Source of the DNA: an uncultured Acidobacteriota bacterium
GTDB taxonomy: Bacteria > Acidobacteriota > Thermoanaerobaculia > Multivoradales > UBA5704
NCBI GenBank assembly: GCA_963700145.1
Contig: OY969474.1
Span: 2,528,001-2,592,000 of the forward strand
Direction of reading: 5' to 3'
DNA length: 64,000 nt
Part shown: positions 33,655-57,201 of the stretch, piece after piece
How the letters are laid out: the number at the start of each line of letters is the position of its first letter
How positions within the stretch are numbered: position 1 is the first letter of the stretch
The notes under the pieces: model-generated
Seen by the model: the letters and a program-made list of their open reading frames with translations, nothing else
Database searches by the model: none
Told to the model about the DNA's origin: nothing
Made by a program: the position numbers and the translations under genes

Positions 33655-34862
33655 TCGGCCTCTCCGAGGTCGAGGCGGCGCGCGCGGCGCTGCGGGGGAG
33701 CGTCGTCGAGACCCCCTGCCTCCCCTGCCGCGCCCTCGCCGACGACCTCGGCCTCGACGTCTGGCTCAAGTACGAGAACCTCCAGCTCACCGGCTCCTTC
33801 AAGGTACGGGGGGCGCTGCACAAGCTGCGCTCCCTGCCCGCGGACGTCCTCGCCCGCGGCATCGTCGCCGCCTCGGCCGGCAACCACGCGCAGGGGGTGG
33901 CCTACGCCGCCCGCGAGACCGGCGCGCCAGCCACCGTCGTCATGCCGCTGACCGCGCCGCTGGTCAAGATCGCCAACACCGAGCGGCTGGGGGCGCGCGC
34001 CGTCCTCCACGGCGAGACCTTCGACGACGCCTACGCCGAGGCCTGCCGCCTGGCGGCGGCGGAGGGGCTGACCTTCATCCACCCCTTCGAGGACGAGCGG
34101 GTGATCGCCGGCCAGGGGACGATCGGGCTCGAGCTCGTCGAGCAGGTGCCGGAGCTGGGGGCGGTGGTGGTGCCGGTCGGCGGCGGCGGCCTCATCTCGG
34201 GCATCGCCACCGCGGTCAAGGCGCTGCGCCCGGAGGTCAAGGTCTACGGCGTCGCCACCGAGGCGGCGCCCGGCGCGGCCGAGAGCTTCCGCACCGGCAG
34301 CGTCGTCGAGCGCCCGAGCCAGCGGTCGGTCGCCGACGGCATCGCCGTCAAGAAGCTCGGCGAGCTGACCTTCGCGCACATCCGGCGGTCGGTCGACGAT
34401 CTGGTGACGGTCTCCGAGGAGCAGATCCGCAAGACGATCTTCCGCCTCCTCGAAGGGTGCAAGACGCTGGCGGAGGGCGCAGCGGCGGCGGCCGTGGCGG
34501 CGCTCGTCGCGGGGCGGCTGCCGGAGCTGGCGGGGCGGCGGGTGGCGGTCGTCCTCTCGGGTGGCAACATCGACGTCCAGCTCCTCTCGCGGATCATCGA
34601 CCTGTCGCTGGTGCAGAGCCACCGCCTGGTGCGCTTCCGCACCGGCGTCCCCGACCGCCCCGGCTCCCTCGCCGAGCTGCTCAAGGTGATCGCCGCCGGC
34701 GGCGGCAACGTGGTGCGCGTCCAGCACGACCGCGTCTTCAAGCACACCGGCTTCTGGGAAGCGGAGGTCGAGATCACCCTCGAGACCCGCGGCCCGGAGC
34801 ACGTCACCGACCTCCACCGCACCCTCCGCGAGCGCGGCTTCCACGCCGAGGTGCTGCAGTAG
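33651..34862 (+). CDS. ilvA: Threonine ammonia-lyase with C-terminal ACT domain
   Basis: KYENLQLTGSFKVRG, ASAGNHAQG, PVGGGGL, SGGNID, DRPGSL. Confidence 0.95.
   Translation: MIGLSEVEAARAALRGSVVETPCLPCRALADDLGLDVWLKYENLQLTGSFKVRGALHKLRSLPADVLARGIVAASAGNHAQGVAYAARETGAPATVVMPLTAPLVKIANTERLGARAVLHGETFDDAYAEACRLAAAEGLTFIHPFEDERVIAGQGTIGLELVEQVPELGAVVVPVGGGGLISGIATAVKALRPEVKVYGVATEAAPGAAESFRTGSVVERPSQRSVADGIAVKKLGELTFAHIRRSVDDLVTVSEEQIRKTIFRLLEGCKTLAEGAAAAAVAALVAGRLPELAGRRVAVVLSGGNIDVQLLSRIIDLSLVQSHRLVRFRTGVPDRPGSLAELLKVIAAGGGNVVRVQHDRVFKHTGFWEAEVEITLETRGPEHVTDLHRTLRERGFHAEVLQ
34826..34862 (+). repeat. Direct repeat copy 1 (ilvA 3' end, att-like)
   Basis: CCGCGAGCGCGGCTTCCACGCCGAGGTGCTGCAGTAG; 34/37 match to 37755-37791. 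Confidence 0.85.
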
Positions 34863-34864
34863 CG

Positions 34865-35036
34865 CTGAAACGCCCAGCGGCTGCGAGCTCCGCACCCAGC
34901 AGGTGCACAGGACGGGTAGTTCAACGCCCGGTTCAAAGACGAAGACACCGAGGTTAGCGGAAACGGCGCGGTTGGCGGGCGGCTTGCTCCTAAACCATCC
35001 GTCATGTGGCGTCGTCACGTGCCCGGCCATTTCTTT
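34865..35036 (+). promoter_or_regulatory. Degenerate copy of the sigma54 promoter/sRNA module
   Basis: Colinear with 42516-42709; TGGC-N7-TTGC at 34973-34987; AACCATCCGTC retained. Confidence 0.6.
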
Positions 35037-35200
35037 CCTGCCTACAGGCAACGGATCCGATCACAGAGAACTCCAGCCTCTGGTCAGAGCCTTGCGCGAG
35101 CACTGCCGAAGGAATTGTCAGTTGGCTGCGATCAAAATCGCAGACTGGCGCAAGAATTGCCCCGATTCGGCCAACGCTGTAACGCCGGTCTATCGTCCGC

Positions 35201-36088
35201 TTAAGACCTCCTATCGGGTAGAGTCTTGGCTATTCCCACCTTGTTCAAGGCAGCGAGTAGTTTCTTATGGCCACCCTTCTCGAACAAGTTTACCCATTGC
35301 AGGTGCATGAGTCTCTCGGGGACCTCGCACTCTTCGAGCCTCGCAGGAATGATGAAGATAGTGCCAGGAGGTCGCAAGTCAGCGGCGTCAAGGGCTAGCT
35401 TTATCTCCTTTTGCACAAATCCAGTCTTGCTGACCGAGTTGCGGCTAAGGCATACGACGACGACATCTGACTTCTGTAACGCTCTCTCTATCTCCTCTTC
35501 CCAATTCTGTCCCGGCAGAAGATCCACTTCATCGAACCAAGGGTTCATGCCGTCCTTCAGCAATCTCTGATATAGATCCCTGATACGAGTTCTATCGGAG
35601 GAGGAGTAACAAAGAAAAATGACTCGCGATCTCTGCTGCCAACGTGAGTAAAGTTCCTCCGACTGGTTAGCATCAACGAGGTTTGCCTCCTCAGCTTGTG
35701 AAAGAAGCGCACGTAACCGGTCCGGGTGAATATGGCGAAGGTCCCTGTCTGAGGCCCGAAGCCAAGCATCCAACGCCGCTTCCGATACATCCATTTGTAG
35801 GTAGTAAGGCAGGTGATGTTCACCAACCTGCATCGCCATGTGGAGAAGAATGTCCTGAATGGTTTCTGTGGGTTCAAGTTCTAAGGCCAGCAGAGCTCCC
35901 TCTGCCGTGACTGCGTAATCAACTCCCAAAACTCCCTCTTCGCGCTTGACAAGTCCATCCGCTTGAAGAGTATCCAATTGGAGTTGAATCTCTTCGAGCG
36001 ACACGCCAAGTAGATAGCTTAGCCCACCAGGACTGACCCCAAAACGATTATGGAAATATGGGCTGACTCGCGTGTGGACGCCCCACAA
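35201..36088 (-). CDS. TIR-domain protein with N-terminal wHTH-like region
   Basis: IFLCYSSSD...PWFDEVDLLPGQNW...FVQKEI...IIPARLE; low GC; true start may be ATG 36122 with a frameshift. Confidence 0.85.
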   Translation of the reverse strand: MWGVHTRVSPYFHNRFGVSPGGLSYLLGVSLEEIQLQLDTLQADGLVKREEGVLGVDYAVTAEGALLALELEPTETIQDILLHMAMQVGEHHLPYYLQMDVSEAALDAWLRASDRDLRHIHPDRLRALLSQAEEANLVDANQSEELYSRWQQRSRVIFLCYSSSDRTRIRDLYQRLLKDGMNPWFDEVDLLPGQNWEEEIERALQKSDVVVVCLSRNSVSKTGFVQKEIKLALDAADLRPPGTIFIIPARLEECEVPERLMHLQWVNLFEKGGHKKLLAALNKVGIAKTLPDRRS

Positions 36089-36214
36089 GTAAAAGTATCC
36101 TATCTCGCAAAGACGTGCTCATCTCTCCGCACCTATCGATTGTATCGCCCAGCGTTCAGGCGCCAGCTTGATGGTGGCGGTCCGCTCGCTCGAGAGTCAG
36201 GCGGCGTATTCAAT

Positions 36215-36897
36215 TCAGTACCACATGTGCATTGGCAGTCCGGTTGAGTCGAACGCGGGCTCCGCCGGCAGCCGGTTCGCTGTACTCGCCAGCGCGCGCC
36301 GAGTTGTCCAGAGGTTGGCGAACGCGTCGGCAAGATCGTCGGCACCGAAGCGGTTACCGCGGAGAGTCGCTGCCAGCCTTGTGAACTCATTCGAGCCGTA
36401 GAGTTGAGCAATCAGCTCCTGGCGACACTGCTTGCCCGCTGCGCTCTTCTCGCGGTGAACCATCGGGGTGCCCGCCCAAGCGGCAAAGCACAATTCCGGA
36501 TGAACATCAAGCAACCGATGGCGCAACTCAGGATTGGCCTGCAACACACTGTCGATCTCTCGGATCTTCGGGAGAATCGCGAACGTCTGCCGTGAAACCC
36601 GCCGACCATCAACAGTGGCGGTGATGTTGCAGGCTTCCTCCCAGGAGGTTGCGCGAAGCGCAGGTCGGATGGGAGTGGGAAAAACGCTAGCGCAGCGGGG
36701 CCATCCCAGTTTGACGCGTGCCGCTTGATCAGCTCGCCGTGAGCCACGATCAGGAAGACCGATCGGCACGTCGATGGCGGCAAAGTCGTAGTCAAAAGCA
36801 ACCAGCTCCGCTGTAGTCAGCACATAGGCCGAGAGGTGGAGTCGCTGGTGTCCATGACTACTACGACCCATCCGTCCTTACATCCGTCAGAGTCTGC
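36215..36897 (-). pseudogene. DUF429 (RNase H-like predicted nuclease), frameshifted and missing its start
   Basis: AIDVPIGL, VHPELCF, DDLADA; N-terminal DGCKDGWVVV motif (36868-36888) lies in another frame. Confidence 0.75.
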
Positions 36898-37557
36898 TCA
36901 CGATAAACCGAGCGATCCAACCTTGTTTTGGGTGGCGCTTCGAGTCGTCAGGGCCTCGTGATAAACCAACCGTGGGTAGTGGTCCATGAGGTTGATGAAC
37001 TCTCCGCGGTTAGAATCTTCAACAATCCGTCGCATCTTTCGGGCGGTTGGCGTCGAGACGTGGGTTGCGACAGCGTCCCAGTCGAATGACGCGAGCTTCA
37101 CGAGCCAGGACGAGTAACGTTCATGCTTGAGGATTTCGTACAGCAGCTCATAGAAGCTCGTGCCGAACTCATTTCTCTTGCCGTCGCCGCTCGCAAGGAC
37201 CAGTACCGTGGGCGACTTCTGGTGCAGCGCCACCAACCTCCAAATATGACCGATAATTGCGTGGTCGACTCCCCTCTCTCGCCATTGGAGATCGCGAAAG
37301 AGCCGCTGAGTATCGTAGTTGTTCTTCTGGTATTCGGCCCAGACCTTCTCCATCCCTGGCGGTACTCCTCCGGACACGATCTTTGTACTCAGGCCCTTCC
37401 CGCTACCTCCAAGTATGCGGTCAAGATTCCTCACGCTAATTCGAGCGCGATGGTCTGCGATGTTGGAGTCTCGAATTCTAGTAGCCCCTCGCGCACCGCC
37501 CCAGACGTTGCTGTGGTCTACGAATATGTGCACAAACGGCAGGATCTCATGTGCCAT
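36898..37557 (-). CDS. NYN/LabA-like PIN-fold nuclease
   Basis: IFVDHSN, ERGVDHAI, LVLASGDG motifs. Confidence 0.75.
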   Translation of the reverse strand: MAHEILPFVHIFVDHSNVWGGARGATRIRDSNIADHRARISVRNLDRILGGSGKGLSTKIVSGGVPPGMEKVWAEYQKNNYDTQRLFRDLQWRERGVDHAIIGHIWRLVALHQKSPTVLVLASGDGKRNEFGTSFYELLYEILKHERYSSWLVKLASFDWDAVATHVSTPTARKMRRIVEDSNRGEFINLMDHYPRLVYHEALTTRSATQNKVGSLGLS

Positions 37558-37754
37558 AGCCCCTAAAGCTCCTCGATGCCCAGTGTAGCAAGGCCGCCGT
37601 TCCGCCGGCGCCCCCGTTTCGGTGCCCGACCTACGGCTGTCGCGGCGATGGCTGCGGGCGGGAATCGGCCTGGGCGTGGAGGTGGGGGAGGTTCGTTATC
37701 CGGGCGACTTGAGGCCCCGGCGAGCGGCTGCGCGCTGCGGACTCGGCGGCGACA

Positions 37755-37791
37755 CCGCGAGCACGGCTTCCACGCCGAGGTACTGCACTAG
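37755..37791 (+). repeat. Direct repeat copy 2 (orphan ilvA 3' end)
   Basis: CCGCGAGCACGGCTTCCACGCCGAGGTACTGCACTAG. Confidence 0.85.
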
Positions 37792-37822
37792 GAGCTAGAG
37801 GGAGGAGCGCCGTCCCGGACCG

Positions 37823-38046
37823 CTACAAGGCGCTCCGGAATTCCTCGACCGTCAGCCCGGCCTCGCGAATGAGCGCACGGAGCGTCCCCTTGGCGACGCT
37901 CCGATGGCTTGGCACGACCAAGCGTCGATGGGGCTCTTCGACATGCCGGAGGACGACATGGCTCCCCCGCTGGTGGTCAACCTTTATCCGAGACGCTCGA
38001 AGGCGCGGATCGCCTCCGCACCTGAGATGCTAGGGAGCCTGCTCAA
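37823..38046 (-). pseudogene. hicA: HicA toxin, frameshifted
   Basis: LSRLPSISGAEAIRAFERLG, then a 1-nt deletion near 37985; resumes KVDHQRGSHVVL...VPSHRSVAKGTLRALIREAGL. Confidence 0.85.
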
Positions 38047-38253
38047 ACCGACTTCGACGACCTCTTCCTCGATCGGTGGCGGAATCGGCTCACCATGCGC
38101 CTTGAGGCTCTCGAGGTAGGCCTCGATCGCTTCCTGTACGTTGGACAGGGCCTCTCCGCGGGTCATCCCCTGCGAGACGCAGCCTGGGAGAGACGGCACC
38201 TGGGCCACGAAGACCCCGTCTTCGTCGCGCTCGATCAGCACTCGGTATTTCAT
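37984..38253 (-). CDS. hicB: HicB antitoxin (reads through into the hicA N-terminus)
   Basis: MKYRVLIERDEDGVFVAQVPSLPGCVSQG...EAIEAYL. Confidence 0.88.
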   Translation of the reverse strand: MKYRVLIERDEDGVFVAQVPSLPGCVSQGMTRGEALSNVQEAIEAYLESLKAHGEPIPPPIEEEVVEVGLSRLPSISGAEAIRAFERLG

Positions 38254-38327
38254 TCCCCACCTGCCCTTCCGGAGACCAGCAGCCAGTTTACCAGGAGCCA
38301 AGAGGCGGCTGGGGCCGCCGCCGGACC

Positions 38328-38537
38328 TGGAGACGTCCTCCCGGGCGCCGGAAACCCGTTTCCAGGTGCTCGGGAAGATCCCGGGCCGCTCCGGGATAGA
38401 TCTCCGGGGCCTGGAGATAGATTTTCCGGGCTCGGAGATCTATCTCCGGGCCTTGGAGATACATCTTCCGGGGTCGGAGATCTATCTCCAGGCCTTGGAG
38501 ATAGATCTCCGGGCCTCCAAGATAGATCTCCTGGCCT
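38328..38537. repeat. 21-bp tandem array, left part (10 units)
   Basis: Core GGAGAT-NN-ATCTCC at strict 21-bp period; outer units degenerate. Confidence 0.9.
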
Positions 38538-38692
38538 GGTACTGTCCTATTTAGTTTCCCGCCCGTCTGACCCCTTGATTCCGCGCTAGCTTCTCCCCCG
38601 AAGGGGGAGGCGTTCTCCCCTCAAACCGAAGCGGCCCGACGGAGCGCAGGCACGCCCCGCCGAGCCTGACCACGCACGGAGGACTAGCCCCC

Positions 38693-39106
38693 ATGCACGG
38701 CTCAGACGAGTCTACCGCCCCGCGCCCCGCCGTTCCCCCACCCACCATCGACCCCGCCAAGTGGGAAGACTTCCCGACGTTCCGAGAAACCTTCCTGCGC
38801 TGGTTCACAGAGCCTACGGCGAACGCCGCGCTCCGCAGCTTTGGCGTGCTCCTCCACGACCTGATTCTGGAAGCCAACCGCGTCCAGCCCGACGAGCCGG
38901 AGGGGATCTACCGCCACGACCTGCGCGCAGCGTTGGCGGACCTCCGCGCGATCCAAGGCTTCCTAGCCTTCATCGCTCAGTCGCAAGAGGACTTGGACGA
39001 GGACGACGCCGAGGACGCCGATTCCCTCCGGCTGTGCTACCTGGCAGAGCAGCTAGCGCCGCGCGTCGGGCGGATCGCGGACAGCATCGAAGGGGCGTTG
39101 TCATGA
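38693..39106 (+). CDS. Hypothetical helical protein (IS cargo)
   Basis: GGAGG RBS; ATGA coupling to the HTH gene. Confidence 0.75.
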   Translation: MHGSDESTAPRPAVPPPTIDPAKWEDFPTFRETFLRWFTEPTANAALRSFGVLLHDLILEANRVQPDEPEGIYRHDLRAALADLRAIQGFLAFIAQSQEDLDEDDAEDADSLRLCYLAEQLAPRVGRIADSIEGALS

Positions 39107-39447
39107 GAGCGCGCAAGCTGGAAGGCGGCGAGCTGGCGGTGGCCCTGCACATTCTGCGCATCATCCGCGGCTGGACCCAGGCCGAAGTCGCCACGGCGGC
39201 CGGGACACGGCCCGGCGCCGTCTCCTACTACGAGAGCGGCCTGAAGGCGCCGGAGCTGCCGACGTTGAGGGCCATGCTGGAAGGGATGGGCTACCAGCTC
39301 TCAACGCTCGACGAAGCGCGGGCGTTCATCCGGCAGGTGCAGAGGGGCGATGCTCCCGCATCCGAGACGAATGCCCAGCTCCTCGCGCTGGAAGTCGGCC
39401 GGCTCGCTACGCGCTTCGCTGCCGCGCTCCTGGAGGCGCGGAAGTGA
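39103..39447 (+). CDS. XRE-family HTH regulator (IS cargo)
   Basis: LRIIRGWTQAEVA...AVSYYESGLKAP. Confidence 0.88.
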   Translation: MRARKLEGGELAVALHILRIIRGWTQAEVATAAGTRPGAVSYYESGLKAPELPTLRAMLEGMGYQLSTLDEARAFIRQVQRGDAPASETNAQLLALEVGRLATRFAAALLEARK

Positions 39448-39881
39448 ACCGGCTTCGGACCGCGACGTTCACGGTTCACGGCACCACGGCGCAGAGCGCG
39501 CGGTGGAAGCAAGCGGCAGAGGCCGAAGGCTTCGCCAGCGCCGGCCAATGGCTTGCGGCGGCGGCCGATAGCTACCTCAAGGCTAGAGCTCGCGCCGGCG
39601 CTCCGGTGCCGCTGGCGTGGCGCCTGGGGCGCTTTAAGGTGCGGCTAGAGGACGGGGGCGAGGAGCTGGTGAGCGGCCACCTATCGCCCCCGTTCGCCAG
39701 CTTCCGGGGCGGGAGCGATGGGCCAGCGCCGCGCGGCTTCAACGTCCATAGTCTCGTCTACCTGCCAAGCGGGCGCATCCTTGCGACCGTGCGCCGCTAC
39801 CAGGAAGTGAGGGCGCTCGCGTCTGAGCTGGCGCGGCAGTGGCTACGGGAAGAGCAGCCGGCCAGGATCGTGTTACCGTGA
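39444..39881 (+). CDS. Hypothetical protein with RHH-like N-terminus (IS cargo)
   Basis: WKQAAEAEGFASAGQWL; GTGA coupling. Confidence 0.65.
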   Translation: MNRLRTATFTVHGTTAQSARWKQAAEAEGFASAGQWLAAAADSYLKARARAGAPVPLAWRLGRFKVRLEDGGEELVSGHLSPPFASFRGGSDGPAPRGFNVHSLVYLPSGRILATVRRYQEVRALASELARQWLREEQPARIVLP

Positions 39882-39886
39882 GCGCC

Positions 39887-40138
39887 ATGCCTAAGCGCCC
39901 ACGCAGACCCCGCGACCCTAACGAGCTGGCGTTTCAGGTCTACCAGGAAGCCATTGGAGAGGCGCCGCCGCAAGCCGACGAGGACGCAGGAAAGAATCCC
40001 GCAGCTGTGGCGCTCGGGAAGCTCGGTGGAGCGAAGGGCGGGAAGGCGCGGGCGGCAAGGCTCACAAAAGAGGAGCGGAGCGAAGCTGCGCGCAAAGCCG
40101 CGCTGGCCCGATGGGCAGCCTCAGCGCGCAAAGATTAG
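39887..40138 (+). CDS. Small basic protein typical of IS1-like elements
   Basis: RPRDPNELA...KNPAAVALGKLGGAKGGKARAARLTKEERSEAARKAALARW. Confidence 0.85.
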   Translation: MPKRPRRPRDPNELAFQVYQEAIGEAPPQADEDAGKNPAAVALGKLGGAKGGKARAARLTKEERSEAARKAALARWAASARKD

Positions 40139-41049
40139 GGTGGAATGTGGACTTGGACCTGTTGTTTGACGAACGCGTTTCCTAGGTGGTTCTCGATGAT
40201 CTTGAATGCTGCCGTGTTCGTCAGGCTGTGCATATAGCAGTGATGCACCGTTAGCACGAGATCCTGTAAGTGTTGATCGTCCTCGATCAGCTTGACCTTT
40301 AGACCAATCGCTGCGCACTCGTCAAAGTGAATGTGGCGTTGGTGTGCGCGGTTACGGCTGTAGTCGGTCAGTTTTTTTACGATTCGCGCAGCCTTCTGCG
40401 CGGCGTCCGGCTCGCCGTCAAACATTACTTGCTCTAGCTGCTCCCTCACGAAGTCATTAGACCAGCGAATTGCATTCTGGCAACGGCTGAGGAGGGTTGG
40501 GGGGTATTGCGCGATGATCGGCTGCCACACCGCCAGTGCCGCCGGATCTTTCTTAATCTCTTTCAACGCCCTCTTGAACTCAGCTATGATCCCGAAGGCT
40601 GGACGTCCAGCAAGATGCGGGTCCATTGGCCCCAAGTTGGCGTGGCGAGCCATGAGAATCTCATGGCAGGAACAAGCCAGCATCGTGCCGGCCGACATCG
40701 CAATCTGCGGCACAATGGCCCGGATATCCTTGCCGAACATCTTGCGGAGGTAATGCACCAGCGATTCTGTGGCGGCAATATCGCCGCCTGGCGTGTGGAG
40801 AATGAGGTCTAGGCCGATGGCGCGATCCATTCCGTGCACGGCCATCATAAAGCCGTTCTTATCTTCGTCGTTGATCTCCGCCATTGGTAGCGAGGGCTTC
40901 GAGAGAAAGCCAGAATAGTATGCGATGATGTTCCTGTGGGTGAGCTGGTGGAGCTGGCCTAGATAGTCATGGCGGACACCATCAACAGCAAGCGCCGCCA
41001 AGTTCTGGCGGCGCTTGATCTCGGCTAAGACTTCCTTCCAGTTCGGCAT
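40135..41049 (-). CDS. ClpP-fold serine protease (SDH/S49 family; IS cargo)
   Basis: LDLILHTPGGD, AMSAGT, LGPMDP; lower GC. Confidence 0.9.
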   Translation of the reverse strand: MPNWKEVLAEIKRRQNLAALAVDGVRHDYLGQLHQLTHRNIIAYYSGFLSKPSLPMAEINDEDKNGFMMAVHGMDRAIGLDLILHTPGGDIAATESLVHYLRKMFGKDIRAIVPQIAMSAGTMLACSCHEILMARHANLGPMDPHLAGRPAFGIIAEFKRALKEIKKDPAALAVWQPIIAQYPPTLLSRCQNAIRWSNDFVREQLEQVMFDGEPDAAQKAARIVKKLTDYSRNRAHQRHIHFDECAAIGLKVKLIEDDQHLQDLVLTVHHCYMHSLTNTAAFKIIENHLGNAFVKQQVQVHIPP

Positions 41050-41064
41050 GCCTGGAAGGCTATC

Positions 41065-41268
41065 TTAACCCACGATAGGATCTTCGAAGGGCGAGTACGT
41101 CGTGATGTAGCGCACCTCAGGATTGGACGTCTGGGTCTGCGGCAATACGACCACAGGTGGAGTGTAGCCCCTCAATAGCTCGAGACGCTCTTGCTCCAGA
41201 TCCTGCGGTTCAGTCCGTTCATGGGTAGGCTGCACTCGCTTGGCGCCCGCCCGGCCTCGAACGCGCAT
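41065..41268 (-). CDS. Small hypothetical protein upstream of the protease
   Basis: AAAGGAGG RBS; 67 aa; 15 bp from the protease start. Confidence 0.6.
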   Translation of the reverse strand: MRVRGRAGAKRVQPTHERTEPQDLEQERLELLRGYTPPVVVLPQTQTSNPEVRYITTYSPFEDPIVG

Positions 41269-41303
41269 AGCGTGAACCTCCTTTCACGGTACAGGTACTC
41301 GTG

Positions 41304-41447
41304 ATGCTATCACGAACGCTGCACCTTGTCGAAACACCCTAGCACGATCTGCGCCTTGTCAACCCCCGCCAGCACGAGCCGCGTCTTGTCAACCCCTGTC
41401 AACCCCCCGCCCAAAGGCTTGACTTTGCCTAAGCGCCTACGTATAAT
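41304..41447. promoter_or_regulatory. Divergent sigma70 promoters with 30-bp repeats between them
   Basis: Plus strand TTGACT(41419)-17-TATAAT(41442); minus strand TCGACA(41332)-17-TAGCAT(41309); three 30-bp units at 41321-41410. Confidence 0.75.
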
Positions 41448-41454
41448 GTCTAGT

Positions 41455-42330
41455 ATGGCTAACGTGCTCAGCACCGAGAAGCGAGTCGAGATCGTCCGCT
41501 GCCTGGTCGAAGGCTTAGGCATCCGCGCCACCGCCCGCAAGGAGCGCGTGTCCAAGGACACCGTCATGAAGCTCTGGCGGGAGATCGGCGAAGCCTGCAT
41601 CCAGCTCATGGATGAGAAGCTGCGCGGGCTCACCTGCAAGCGGCTCCAGGTCGATGAGATTTGGGCGTTCTGCCACGCCAAGGAAAAGAACGTCCCGGCC
41701 GACAAGCGGGGCGTCTTCGGCTACGGCGACATCTGGACCTTTACCGCGATTGACGCGCAGACCAAGTTGATTCCGTCCTTCCTGGTCGGCACGCGGGACG
41801 CGGGGTGCGCCACCGAGTTCATGCAGGACTTGGCGGGCCGGCTGGTCAACCGCGTGCAGCTCACCACGGACGGACACAAGATGTACCTGTCCTCCGTCCC
41901 GGATGCCTTCGGGGGCGGGATCGACTTCGCGCAGCTCCAGAAGATTTACGGCGGCGGGCCGACGGATGAGCAGCACCGCTACAGCCCGGCGAAGTGCCTA
42001 GGGACCGAGCGGCGCCGTATCCTCGGCGACCCCGACCCCAAGCACGTCTCGACGTCCTACGTCGAGCGCGGGAACCTGACCATCCGCATGAGCATCCGCC
42101 GCTTCACCCGGCTAACGAATGCCTTCTCGAAGAAGGTCGAGAATCACGTCGCGGCGCTCGGGCTCTTCTTCGCCTACCACAACTTTTGCCGGATTCATCA
42201 GACCCTGCGAATCACTCCGGCGATGGCGGCCGGGGTCACGACGCGGATATGGGAAGTCGAGGAGCTGGTGGCGCTCCTGCCGCCGGTCGCGCATGCGGGC
42301 GGTCGGCCGCGCCGGGCGGAAACTAACTAG
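41455..42330 (+). CDS. IS1-family DDE transposase (single ORF, ISMhu11-like)
   Basis: HTH (EGLGIRATAR), QVDEIW, QLTTDG, STSYVERGNLTIR, RRFTRLTNAFSKK, TPAMAAG. Confidence 0.93.
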   Translation: MANVLSTEKRVEIVRCLVEGLGIRATARKERVSKDTVMKLWREIGEACIQLMDEKLRGLTCKRLQVDEIWAFCHAKEKNVPADKRGVFGYGDIWTFTAIDAQTKLIPSFLVGTRDAGCATEFMQDLAGRLVNRVQLTTDGHKMYLSSVPDAFGGGIDFAQLQKIYGGGPTDEQHRYSPAKCLGTERRRILGDPDPKHVSTSYVERGNLTIRMSIRRFTRLTNAFSKKVENHVAALGLFFAYHNFCRIHQTLRITPAMAAGVTTRIWEVEELVALLPPVAHAGGRPRRAETN

Positions 42331-42347
42331 GACAGTACCCCTGGCCT

Positions 42348-42515
42348 TGAAGATATATCTCCGAGCCTCCGAGATATATCTCCAGGCGTCCAAGATAGAT
42401 CTCCAGCCCTCGGAGATAGATCTTCCGCGGCTGGAGATCTATCTCCAGGCGCCCGGGAGACATCTCCCGGCGCCGCCGGGACATCTCCAGGCGCTGGGGG
42501 GACATCAACCTTCGA
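42348..42515. repeat. 21-bp tandem array, right part (8 units)
   Basis: Continues in phase with the left part once the IS and one TSD are removed. Confidence 0.9.
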
Positions 42516-42639
42516 CTGAAATGCCCAGCCGGTGCGCGGCGGGTGCCAAGCGGGTGAGCGGCGGGGGTAGTTGAGCGTCCGGTTCAACTTCCGTGAAATG
42601 AGTGACTTGGCGCTCGCGCCCCGCTGGCGCGCGGCTTGC
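42516..42639 (+). promoter_or_regulatory. sigma54 promoter with upstream enhancer-like boxes
   Basis: TGGCGCGCGGCTTGC at 42625-42639; AGTTGA-N9-TCAACT palindrome near 42569-42589; AT-richer IHF-like spacer. Confidence 0.7.
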
Positions 42640-42650
42640 CTCTGCCCCCT

Positions 42651-42709
42651 GCCGAACCATCCGTCCGATGTGGGCCGTCGCGTCACCGTGCCGCGGCGGC
42701 CCCTTTTTT
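42651..42709 (+). ncRNA. Candidate sigma54-dependent small RNA (~59 nt)
   Basis: Lies between the -12 box and an 11-bp stem (42672-42702) plus T6 terminator; no ORF. Confidence 0.55.
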
Positions 42710-42731
42710 CTCCCGACTACAATCCGCGGCC

Positions 42732-43151
42732 GTGAAGCCCTGCGTCTTCTGCGAGGTGGTGCGCGGCGAGCGGGAGGCGGCGGTGGTCTAGGACGCGGAG
42801 ACGGTGGCGTTCCTCGACCACAGGCCGCTCCTCCACGGCCACTGCCTGCTGGTGCCGCGGCGGCACGTCGAGACGCTGGCGGAGCTGCCGGCGGAGCTCG
42901 CCGGGCCGCTCTTCGCCAACGTGCAGCGGCTGGCGGGGGCGGTGGAGCGGGGGCTGGACGCCGCCGGCGCCTTCGTCGCGATCAACGTCAAGGTCAGCCA
43001 GAGCGTCCCCCACCTGCACGTCCACGTCGTGCCGCGCTGGAAGGGGGACGGCCTCTTCTCCCACAAGCTCCTCTGGAAGCGCACACCCTACGCCGGCGAC
43101 GCCGAGAAGCGCGAGGTGCAGGAAAAGATCCGCCGGGCCCTCGCCGAGTAG
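42732..43151 (+). pseudogene. HIT-family hydrolase with an in-frame TAG
   Basis: VKPCVFC...AAVV*DAETVAFLD...HLHVH; TAG at 42789-42791. Confidence 0.8.

Positions 43152-55713: not shown

Positions 55714-57201
<1,488 letters not shown>

Follow-up and report, generated by a model that had tools for sequence, protein, structure and literature searches.

A candidate sigma-54-dependent small-RNA cassette, present at strain level, in an uncultured Acidobacteriota bacterium

The genome of an uncultured Acidobacteriota bacterium (Thermoanaerobaculia; Multivoradales; UBA5704; GenBank assembly GCA_963700145.1, contig OY969474.1) contains, between an ilvA-like gene and a HIT-family gene, a compact unit in which an enhancer, a sigma-54 type promoter, a short stretch predicted to be transcribed and an intrinsic terminator follow one another. 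This unit, which we call module B, is a plausible but unproven accessory small-RNA gene, with its own promoter, its own intrinsic terminator and no open reading frame (ORF). It lies in a 64,000-nt stretch (hereafter the window; G000:C1:2528001-2592000) of the source genome, G000, which consists of one contig, C1, of 5.46 Mb. A diverged second copy, module A, is located in the same window, and a third genomic site, locus C, shares the arrangement of enhancer and promoter. Comparison of these three sites suggests that the promoter of module B is probably functional and enhancer-dependent. The reading we prefer, which we hold tentatively and stop short of calling probable, makes module B a working small-RNA gene in the regulon of an activator with an FHA domain.

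The comparisons covered four congeners (G001, G002, G003 and G004) and a family set of 92 genomes including G000. Wider sets were the 91 other family genomes for a pattern search and 40 relatives plus 400 other genomes of the class for BLAST. Strain variation was read from contigs of four soil or urban metagenome runs (X1-X4) aligned to the region of the locus.

Promoter, enhancer and terminator

Every element that a first-pass annotation of the window had described for module B (enhancer boxes, an AT-richer spacer, TGGC-N7-TTGC and a terminator) is present at its position (Table 1). Sigma-54 promoters have the consensus TGGCAC-N5-TTGC, with GG at -24 and GC at -12, and transcription usually starts 12 nt past the C of the -12 GC. 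The more relaxed TGGC-N7-TTGC occurs seven times in the window where 1.59 are expected, a count reached by none of 100 shuffles, and 191 times on both strands of the genome. The 12-mer GAAAYGCCCAGC has exactly three copies in the genome, and all three stand on the same strand as a TGGC-N7-TTGC motif, 105-107 nt upstream of it. Given the 191 genomic promoter motifs, the chance of such a spacing at one random site is about 5e-5, and the co-occurrence of these elements is non-random.

The tandem repeats, or the dyads within them, lie 100-102 nt upstream of the first base of the promoter motif, inside the range of about 80-150 nt typical of upstream activator sites. Measured against a perfect tandem dyad, locus C has no mismatch, module B has 1+2 and module A has 2+3; module B is one of four tandem sites with three mismatches in total, the best in the genome after locus C. 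In a three-way alignment of A, B and C, only the enhancer box, TGGCG...CTTGC (-24/-12) and CATCCG are invariant and the remainder has diverged, which is the footprint that would be expected under selection on binding sites. The genome encodes rpoN (PF04552, one match), Hfq and about 15 activators, and has 19 Sigma54_activat (PF00158) matches. This within-genome comparison of the 12-mer (three of three), the dyads and the alignment supports the first-pass annotation in its view of a sigma-54 promoter with an enhancer. A further box between enhancer and promoter, GGGTAGTT-N-A-N-CG-N-CCGGTTCAA, occurs twice in the genome, in modules A and B only, and is absent at locus C; in module B it contains a 9-nt inverted repeat, and it may be a site for a bending protein or a second regulator.

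The predicted start, G42651, was set by sigma-54 geometry from the promoter position. From there some 59 nt run to the end of the strong intrinsic terminator that had been proposed, and both the hairpin and the U6 tract are confirmed; the predicted 59-nt RNA folds at -26.4 kcal/mol (z = -2.5), a value equalled by 3 of 200 shuffles. Such terminators are rare in this genome. A survey of all T6+ runs on both strands, scored for a hairpin ending within 2 nt and with A-runs as control, found only 159 runs. With the cut-off at -18 kcal/mol, 22 of them follow a hairpin of that strength or more, and 5 of 159 do so in the control; with the cut-off at -22 kcal/mol the numbers are 11 and 2, respectively. 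The terminator hairpin of module B scores -24.4 kcal/mol in this survey and is among the 22. The survey also brought out a repeat of about 27 nt forming a hairpin (GTAGCGCCCGG...CCGGGCG) followed by T5-8, with 15 or more genomic sites, and a 42-nt string with a terminal T-run, with 8 identical copies; the two look like repeat families that supply many of the genome's terminator-like sites.

No reading frame is conserved between modules A and B, because their alignment has gaps of 1, 10, 1 and 12 nt. Searched with Rfam 15 at gathering thresholds, the whole window gave no match to a known family. E-value mode gave only chance-like matches below threshold, the best at 19.9 bits (threshold 60) and 13.4 bits (threshold 41), and module A had no match in that mode.

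Table 1 Features of modules A and B and of the DNA between them (window coordinates)
Feature	Position	Strand	Remarks
Module B, complete unit: enhancer, promoter, short transcribed stretch (predicted), terminator	42512-42709	+	198 nt; one presence/absence unit
12-mer GAAATGCCCAGC	42518-42529	+	Enhancer side of module B
Enhancer (upstream activator site), two 22-nt direct repeats	42522-42543, 42544-42565	+	86% identical, spacing 22
GCCCA-N5-TGGGC-like dyads of module B	42523-42537, 42545-42559	+	One inside each 22-nt repeat
23-nt box GGGTAGTT-N-A-N-CG-N-CCGGTTCAA	42565-42587	+	Between enhancer and promoter
AT-richer spacer of the first-pass annotation	about 42588-42612	+	Placed by reading the sequence
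Sigma-54 type -24/-12 promoter TGGCGCGCGGCTTGC	42625-42639	+	TGGCGC-N5-TTGC
Predicted 54-59-nt transcript	42651-42709	+	21-nt C-rich 5' tail, then terminator hairpin; start from promoter geometry
AACCATCCGTC block ('seed')	42655-42665	+	Inside the 16-nt complement stretch 42654-42669
Intrinsic terminator	42672-42709	+	11-bp GC stem plus 2-bp inner stem, then C + U6; hairpin 42672-42702, T6 42704-42709
Module A, diverged second copy	34865-35046	+	nhmmer; A/B alignment over about 190 nt
12-mer of module A	34867		
Promoter of module A, TGGCGGGCGGCTTGC	34973-34987		TGGCGG-N5-TTGC
AACCATCCGTC block of module A	34993-35003		
Weak 8-bp hairpin of module A	35003-35021	+	
Low-GC accessory island	35050-42340		7.3 kb, between modules A and B; composition, Pfam/PADLOC/NCBIfam
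GGAGAT-N2-ATCTCC-type palindrome array	42340-42506		Period 21; directly upstream of module B

Candidate activator, mechanism and target

Locus C, the third 12-mer site (G000:C1:5129453, minus strand), carries two perfect GCCCA-N5-TGGGC dyads 22 nt apart and belongs to an accessory cluster spanning G000:C1:5127800-5134393 (L048). Its promoter precedes a 498-aa gene that has no Pfam domain and, by reading, an apparent signal peptide. This gene is divergent from a Pkinase+TPR gene plus a gene with the architecture FHA-Sigma54_activat-HTH_8, and locus C is in the spacer they share. From this position the FHA-AAA+-HTH_8 protein may be the cognate activator of the modules. No orthologue of it was found at E <= 1e-80 in any of the four congeners, which likewise lack the modules. 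At E <= 1e-110, homologues are present in 33 of 201 genomes of the order, including G000; their full-length identity does not exceed 54%. The 498-aa gene is patchy (16 of the 92 family genomes), and in G073 it lies on one contig with a homologue of the activator, about 4 kb apart. The upstream regions of 13 homologues of the 498-aa gene gave no promoter or box, in extracts placed by the protein match that had largely fallen inside N-terminal extensions. The window itself has a further gene with a Sigma54_activat domain (56113-56604, minus strand), 13 kb downstream of module B.

In the mechanism that we propose, the activator, most likely the FHA protein whose gene accompanies that of a Ser/Thr kinase at G000:C1:5.13 Mb, would bind the tandem 22-nt repeats about 100 nt upstream and would open the sigma-54 holoenzyme complex at TGGCGC-N5-TTGC. 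Transcription would start near G42651 and stop at the U6 tract, yielding an RNA of about 54-59 nt. With a single-stranded, C-rich 5' tail of 21 nt and, after it, a terminator hairpin ending in a U-tail, this RNA would match a base-pairing small RNA of the Hfq type in its minimal form. Such an RNA, if made and stable, would most likely act in trans through the 5' tail, and the only specific candidate target is an accessory gene of 231 aa. The trans-acting small RNA put forward in the first-pass annotation thereby keeps part of its basis, namely a cassette running from promoter to terminator without a conserved ORF in a genome that has rpoN and Hfq, and loses another, the conserved seed, for the reasons given in the next section. 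A fuller chain would run from the Ser/Thr kinase, which is of eukaryote-like type, through phospho-threonine sensing by the FHA activator and the tandem 22-nt enhancer to a 59-nt RNA silencing a horizontally acquired gene through a 16-nt duplex, in one strain-specific regulon with a protein target and two RNA cassettes; we consider this chain quite unlikely.

The candidate target comes from a search of the genome for complements of the tail. The best match besides the locus itself is a 16-nt perfect antisense site at G000:C1:2150771-2150786, with a predicted duplex of -38 kcal/mol, and an exact match of 16 nt on either strand was reached by 1 of 100 mononucleotide shuffles of the 22-nt tail. 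The site falls in the 231-aa ORF, which is of low GC, has no match in Pfam, NCBIfam or PADLOC, and adjoins an IS3-type transposase pair (HTH_Tnp_1, rve) in a low-GC islet (G000:C1:2148900-2151000, L340). Two of the 92 family genomes, G000 and G087, have this gene. We treat it as a target lead and not as evidence of regulation. A 219-aa ORF of the island between the modules was tried as a relative of the 231-aa ORF and rejected (BLASTP E = 5.3).

Second copy, relatives and competing explanations

Observations on the second copy, on the activator and target, and on related genomes weigh against module B as a working small-RNA gene of the FHA-activator regulon, and they are collected here. A profile search of the genome with both copies (nhmmer) returned E = 5.7e-53 and, for module A, 3.1e-47, with a weak third match at E = 0.047 for locus C; only two full copies of the module exist in the genome. 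Modules A and B, and perhaps C, hence share descent, and the co-occurrence of 12-mer and promoter does not amount to three independent events. By its dyads, module A does not stand out from about 1,000 chance sites. The two modules are identical at 118 of 205 alignment columns (58%), and module A lacks the 3' arm of the terminator of module B (12-nt gap) and folds at only -11.7 kcal/mol (z = -1.3).

The first-pass annotation had regarded an unpaired 5' block as conserved in the second copy. The block does recur exactly, as AACCATCCGTC at 34993 and 42655, but the conservation is not significant: in 20,000 column shuffles of the A/B alignment, with gap columns counted, a longest run of 11 or more had P = 0.16. 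In addition, the block of module A starts 6 nt after TTGC and the predicted start, at about 34999, falls within it, so that it is not the unpaired 5' part of a transcript there. Run length and geometry together mean that the conserved-seed argument fails. Module A is probably a decaying paralogue. Its transcript, if any, would run antisense toward a TIR-domain gene. That gene encodes a 295-aa protein with a C-terminal TIR domain and lies at 35201-37557 on the minus strand with a gene for a DUF429 protein and the 219-aa ORF, which has no family match, all three co-oriented. The TIR protein has TIR-type PADLOC matches, none above the system cut-off. The trio may be a defence cassette, with the promoter of module A pointing antisense into it.

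The connection of the FHA activator to the modules is one of adjacency at one locus, and in G073 the divergent spacer has only a partial box, ATGCCCAGC, with a different promoter and spacing. At the candidate target, the 16-nt site is at about codons 165-170 of the 231-aa ORF and not at the start codon, and the G087 copy of the gene is without it.

Conservation of promoter and seed in relatives, on which the first-pass annotation had staked its proposal, largely fails to appear. By pattern no module was found in any of the four congeners and no true homologue in the 91 other family genomes, and by BLAST no full match in the 400 genomes of the class. The pattern of promoter plus block has two sites in G000, none in the four congeners and four sites in 3 of the 87 other family genomes, and none of these four has an enhancer or a terminator. 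At the G009 site a gene follows a good TGGCAT-N5-TTGC promoter; the site could not be aligned to the module and was rejected. BLAST of module B against the 40 relatives and the 400 class genomes returned only short GC-rich partial matches and a terminator remnant in G001. In metagenome and genome contigs, GGCTTGC-N2-20-AACCATCCGTC gave no true homologue among the 238 matches listed, 119 from each collection; the best nhmmer E among them was 0.008, and none had the full promoter plus block. A viral scan for the 12-mer plus promoter produced eight loci, all chance-like, and these were set aside.

Among the congeners, G003 (ilvA 84% identical at the protein level) has a gap of 15 nt between ilvA and HIT, G004 (97%) has a palindrome array as its spacer and no module, and G002 has unrelated DNA after ilvA. 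In G001 (96%) the array leads into a remnant of module B, consisting of the loop, the 3' stem arm, the U-tract and the flank only, without the -12 element, the start, the tail and the pairing 5' stem arm. From this remnant and the 15-nt gap in G003 it follows that the unit is dispensable. Run X1 carries the strain of G000, with pieces that differ by 0-1. A contig of 4,880 nt from X3 runs from ilvA through 37816-38528, 42390-42502 and 42717 to HIT, and both modules are absent; a contig from X4 joins 42488 to 42717, and the joints in X3 and X4 hold 7-9 filler letters. Together with the relatives, these joints identify module B as a gene-sized indel extending from the enhancer to the U-tract and older than the split of G000 and G001. 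Runs X2 and X4 also carry a variant of module B that is about 90% identical. In X2 it has 32 differences and 5 gaps over 42412-42764; differences within the module number at least four (42544, 42600, 42612 and 42632). Module B is confined to this strain and its nearest relatives and is an accessory, strain-level element.

Such a distribution lends weight to the explanation that the modules are relics, that is, decaying duplicates of a promoter region of the locus C type, brought with mobile DNA, from which any RNA would be functionless. The strain-specific unit has degraded in G001 and is missing from G003, G004 and the X3 and X4 contigs, and its seed is not conserved. In module A the enhancer is weak, the start is misplaced and the terminator is broken. 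Moreover, the spacer between ilvA and HIT is a proven hot spot of recombination, where palindrome arrays occur together with an IS1-like transposase and a defence island. However, module B retains every element; its terminator is of the rare canonical type and its tandem enhancer is near-perfect. The variant of about 90% identity also persists in other strains, and its four listed differences are all located before the start and spare the GG and GC bases of the -24/-12 element. We rate the relic explanation as unlikely, though one to be taken seriously, and the same holds for its corollary that the hairpin merely insulates HIT from upstream transcription.

The HIT-family gene to the right (42732-43151) raises a different explanation, in which the sigma-54 promoter serves HIT and the hairpin is an attenuator in a cis-acting leader. 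Promoter and gene are indeed co-oriented, and the GTG start at 42732 is 23 nt after the U-tract. By reading, however, nothing pairs with the 5' stem arm as an anti-terminator, and the fold has only a 4-bp hairpin upstream. The HIT gene here also has an in-frame TAG (42789-42791), relatives express HIT without the module, and downstream of module A there is no co-oriented gene, the next genes being on the minus strand. A cis-acting leader is in our view improbable. G001 reads through at the position of the TAG, and the X3 and X4 contigs have three additional bases at 42781. The HIT gene of G000 could be either a pseudogene or, with a restart at GTG 42804, a 115-aa gene in which the HIT domain is largely intact.

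To the left, the ilvA-like gene (PALP+ACT) ends at 34862, and between the modules the GC content drops to 0.51-0.60 at 35000-37500 and to about 0.58 at 40000-41500, compared with 0.70-0.76 outside. The genes of this island encode the TIR-domain protein, the DUF429 protein, a HicB-like antitoxin, an XRE-type helix-turn-helix (HTH) protein, an SDH-type ClpP-like protease and an IS1-like DDE transposase; related strains either lack the island or have it rearranged. The two modules flank it as direct repeats and module B is a discrete indel, as would be seen if the 190-nt repeats were the junctions of the 7.3-kb island, or MITE-like, with the promoter motifs incidental. Against such a mobile-element end or att site stand the 58% of columns shared by the copies, where fresh att sites would be expected to have an identical core, and the presence of only two full copies in the genome. 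The island ORFs scanned included no tyrosine or serine recombinase, the IS1-like DDE transposase being the only enzyme of this kind, and no terminal inverted repeats and no target duplication were found at the ends of module B. Related strains show piecemeal, array-mediated rearrangements and not one excision, and the fixed spacing of 105-107 nt in common with locus C would be left unexplained. We regard this explanation as very improbable.

The palindromes of the array upstream of module B also occur at 38400-38530 of the window, with a period of about 21-25 nt and 8 or more sites in the genome, and arrays of them occupy the ilvA-HIT spacer in G000, G001 and G004 (L013 2741-2950; L014 3060-3330). 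Because metagenome contigs join 38528 directly to 42390, DNA between such arrays seems to be inserted and lost through them.

A last explanation is that ATGTGG, common to both copies, starts a short peptide. An ATG followed by TGG is found in both (at 42668 and 35004), but by reading there is no Shine-Dalgarno sequence upstream, the gaps between the copies are not multiples of three, the peptides are unrelated past the first two residues, and the frame of module B runs through HIT out of frame. A small-protein gene is hardly credible.

Known small RNAs and the family-wide locus D

In other bacteria, small RNAs dedicated to one sigma-54 activator form an established class, to which module B would be a strain-level addition. 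GlmY/GlmZ and NrsZ are sigma-54 dependent, and the Qrr RNAs have several stem-loops and are conserved across a genus. The predicted RNA of module B differs from Qrr in having no Rfam match, about 59 nt with one real hairpin, and a strain-specific module, and it has no Rfam or sequence similarity to Pxr. Qrr is described with LuxO and sigma-54 in Vibrio (PMC10162802). Like the RNA predicted for module B, it needs sigma-54 together with an activator, exists in paralogous copies, has a terminator hairpin that ends in a U-tail and occurs in a host with Hfq. Pxr of Myxococcus, with three stem-loops and conservation across myxobacteria, is alike in being a small RNA with diverging paralogues in a soil bacterium rich in activators and kinases (PMC5684412, PMC5568312). 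GlmY/GlmZ (PMC4152352) and NrsZ (PMC4253122), the latter induced by NtrB/C, are further activator-controlled small RNAs; they are larger, structured and conserved RNAs with known targets, to which module B is not similar. RpoN-dependent flagellar small RNAs are reported for Campylobacter (PMC11187230).

The closest organizational parallel comes from the sigma-54 regulome of Desulfovibrio vulgaris Hildenborough, in which four non-coding RNAs (ncRNAs) are each under one activator (PMC4641369). As predicted for module B, an upstream activator site and a sigma-54 promoter there yield a short non-coding product, to which the authors assign a role in post-transcriptional regulation. Several of those ncRNAs adjoin the activator gene (downstream of DVU0653 and DVU0679), whereas the presumed activator here is 2.56 Mb away. 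The regulators listed there are two- or single-component, in contrast to the FHA protein and Ser/Thr kinase proposed here, and there is no sequence relationship (PMC4641369). Literature searches combining Acidobacteria, small RNA and sigma-54 found nothing, and searches for small RNA in Thermoanaerobaculia found nothing relevant, as judged by titles and abstracts.

A further candidate, locus D (G000:C1:3468604-3468859, minus strand; loci L344-L364), surfaced from the rare canonical terminators of the genome. Its promoter is a perfect CTGGCAC-N5-TTGCAG, no ORF is present in about 205 nt, two CCCAUCC motifs occur, and a terminator of -28.6 kcal/mol is followed by U6. Its upstream palindrome, TGCCA-N9-TGGCA, is unlike the enhancer of the modules, and Rfam has no family for it. 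BLAST located locus D in 75 of the 92 family genomes and in all 11 of 11 genera. An alignment of 42 copies from 20 loci, usually two to four in tandem, has TTGC in all 42 rows and GGCA in 41, and pairs covary in one of its hairpins (AU 32, GC 7, GU 3 at one pair; UA 22, CG 15, UG 5 at the next position). With no Rfam match and no paper found, locus D apparently represents a family-wide, tandemly repeated sigma-54 RNA family that has not been described previously.

Like module B, locus D combines a sigma-54 promoter with a canonical terminator, lacks an ORF and has unpaired motifs rich in C (AUCCUACC-type in locus D, AUCCGUCC in module B). They differ in that locus D is about 205 nt long, has covarying hairpins, and is family-wide and tandem, and the two can be aligned only over a short motif. 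The resemblance of AUCCGUCC in the tail of module B to the unpaired AUCCUACC-type motif of locus D is the only hint that the tail may be a functional motif.

If module B does make a functional RNA, enhancer-dependent small RNAs could be gained and lost as gene-sized cassettes, and an activator of the kinase/FHA type could have RNA outputs. Taken alone, module B is a strain-level curiosity. The larger value lies in a defined activator motif with three genomic sites and in locus D, a conserved and tandemly amplified family from which riboregulation in this class can be approached much better than from module B.

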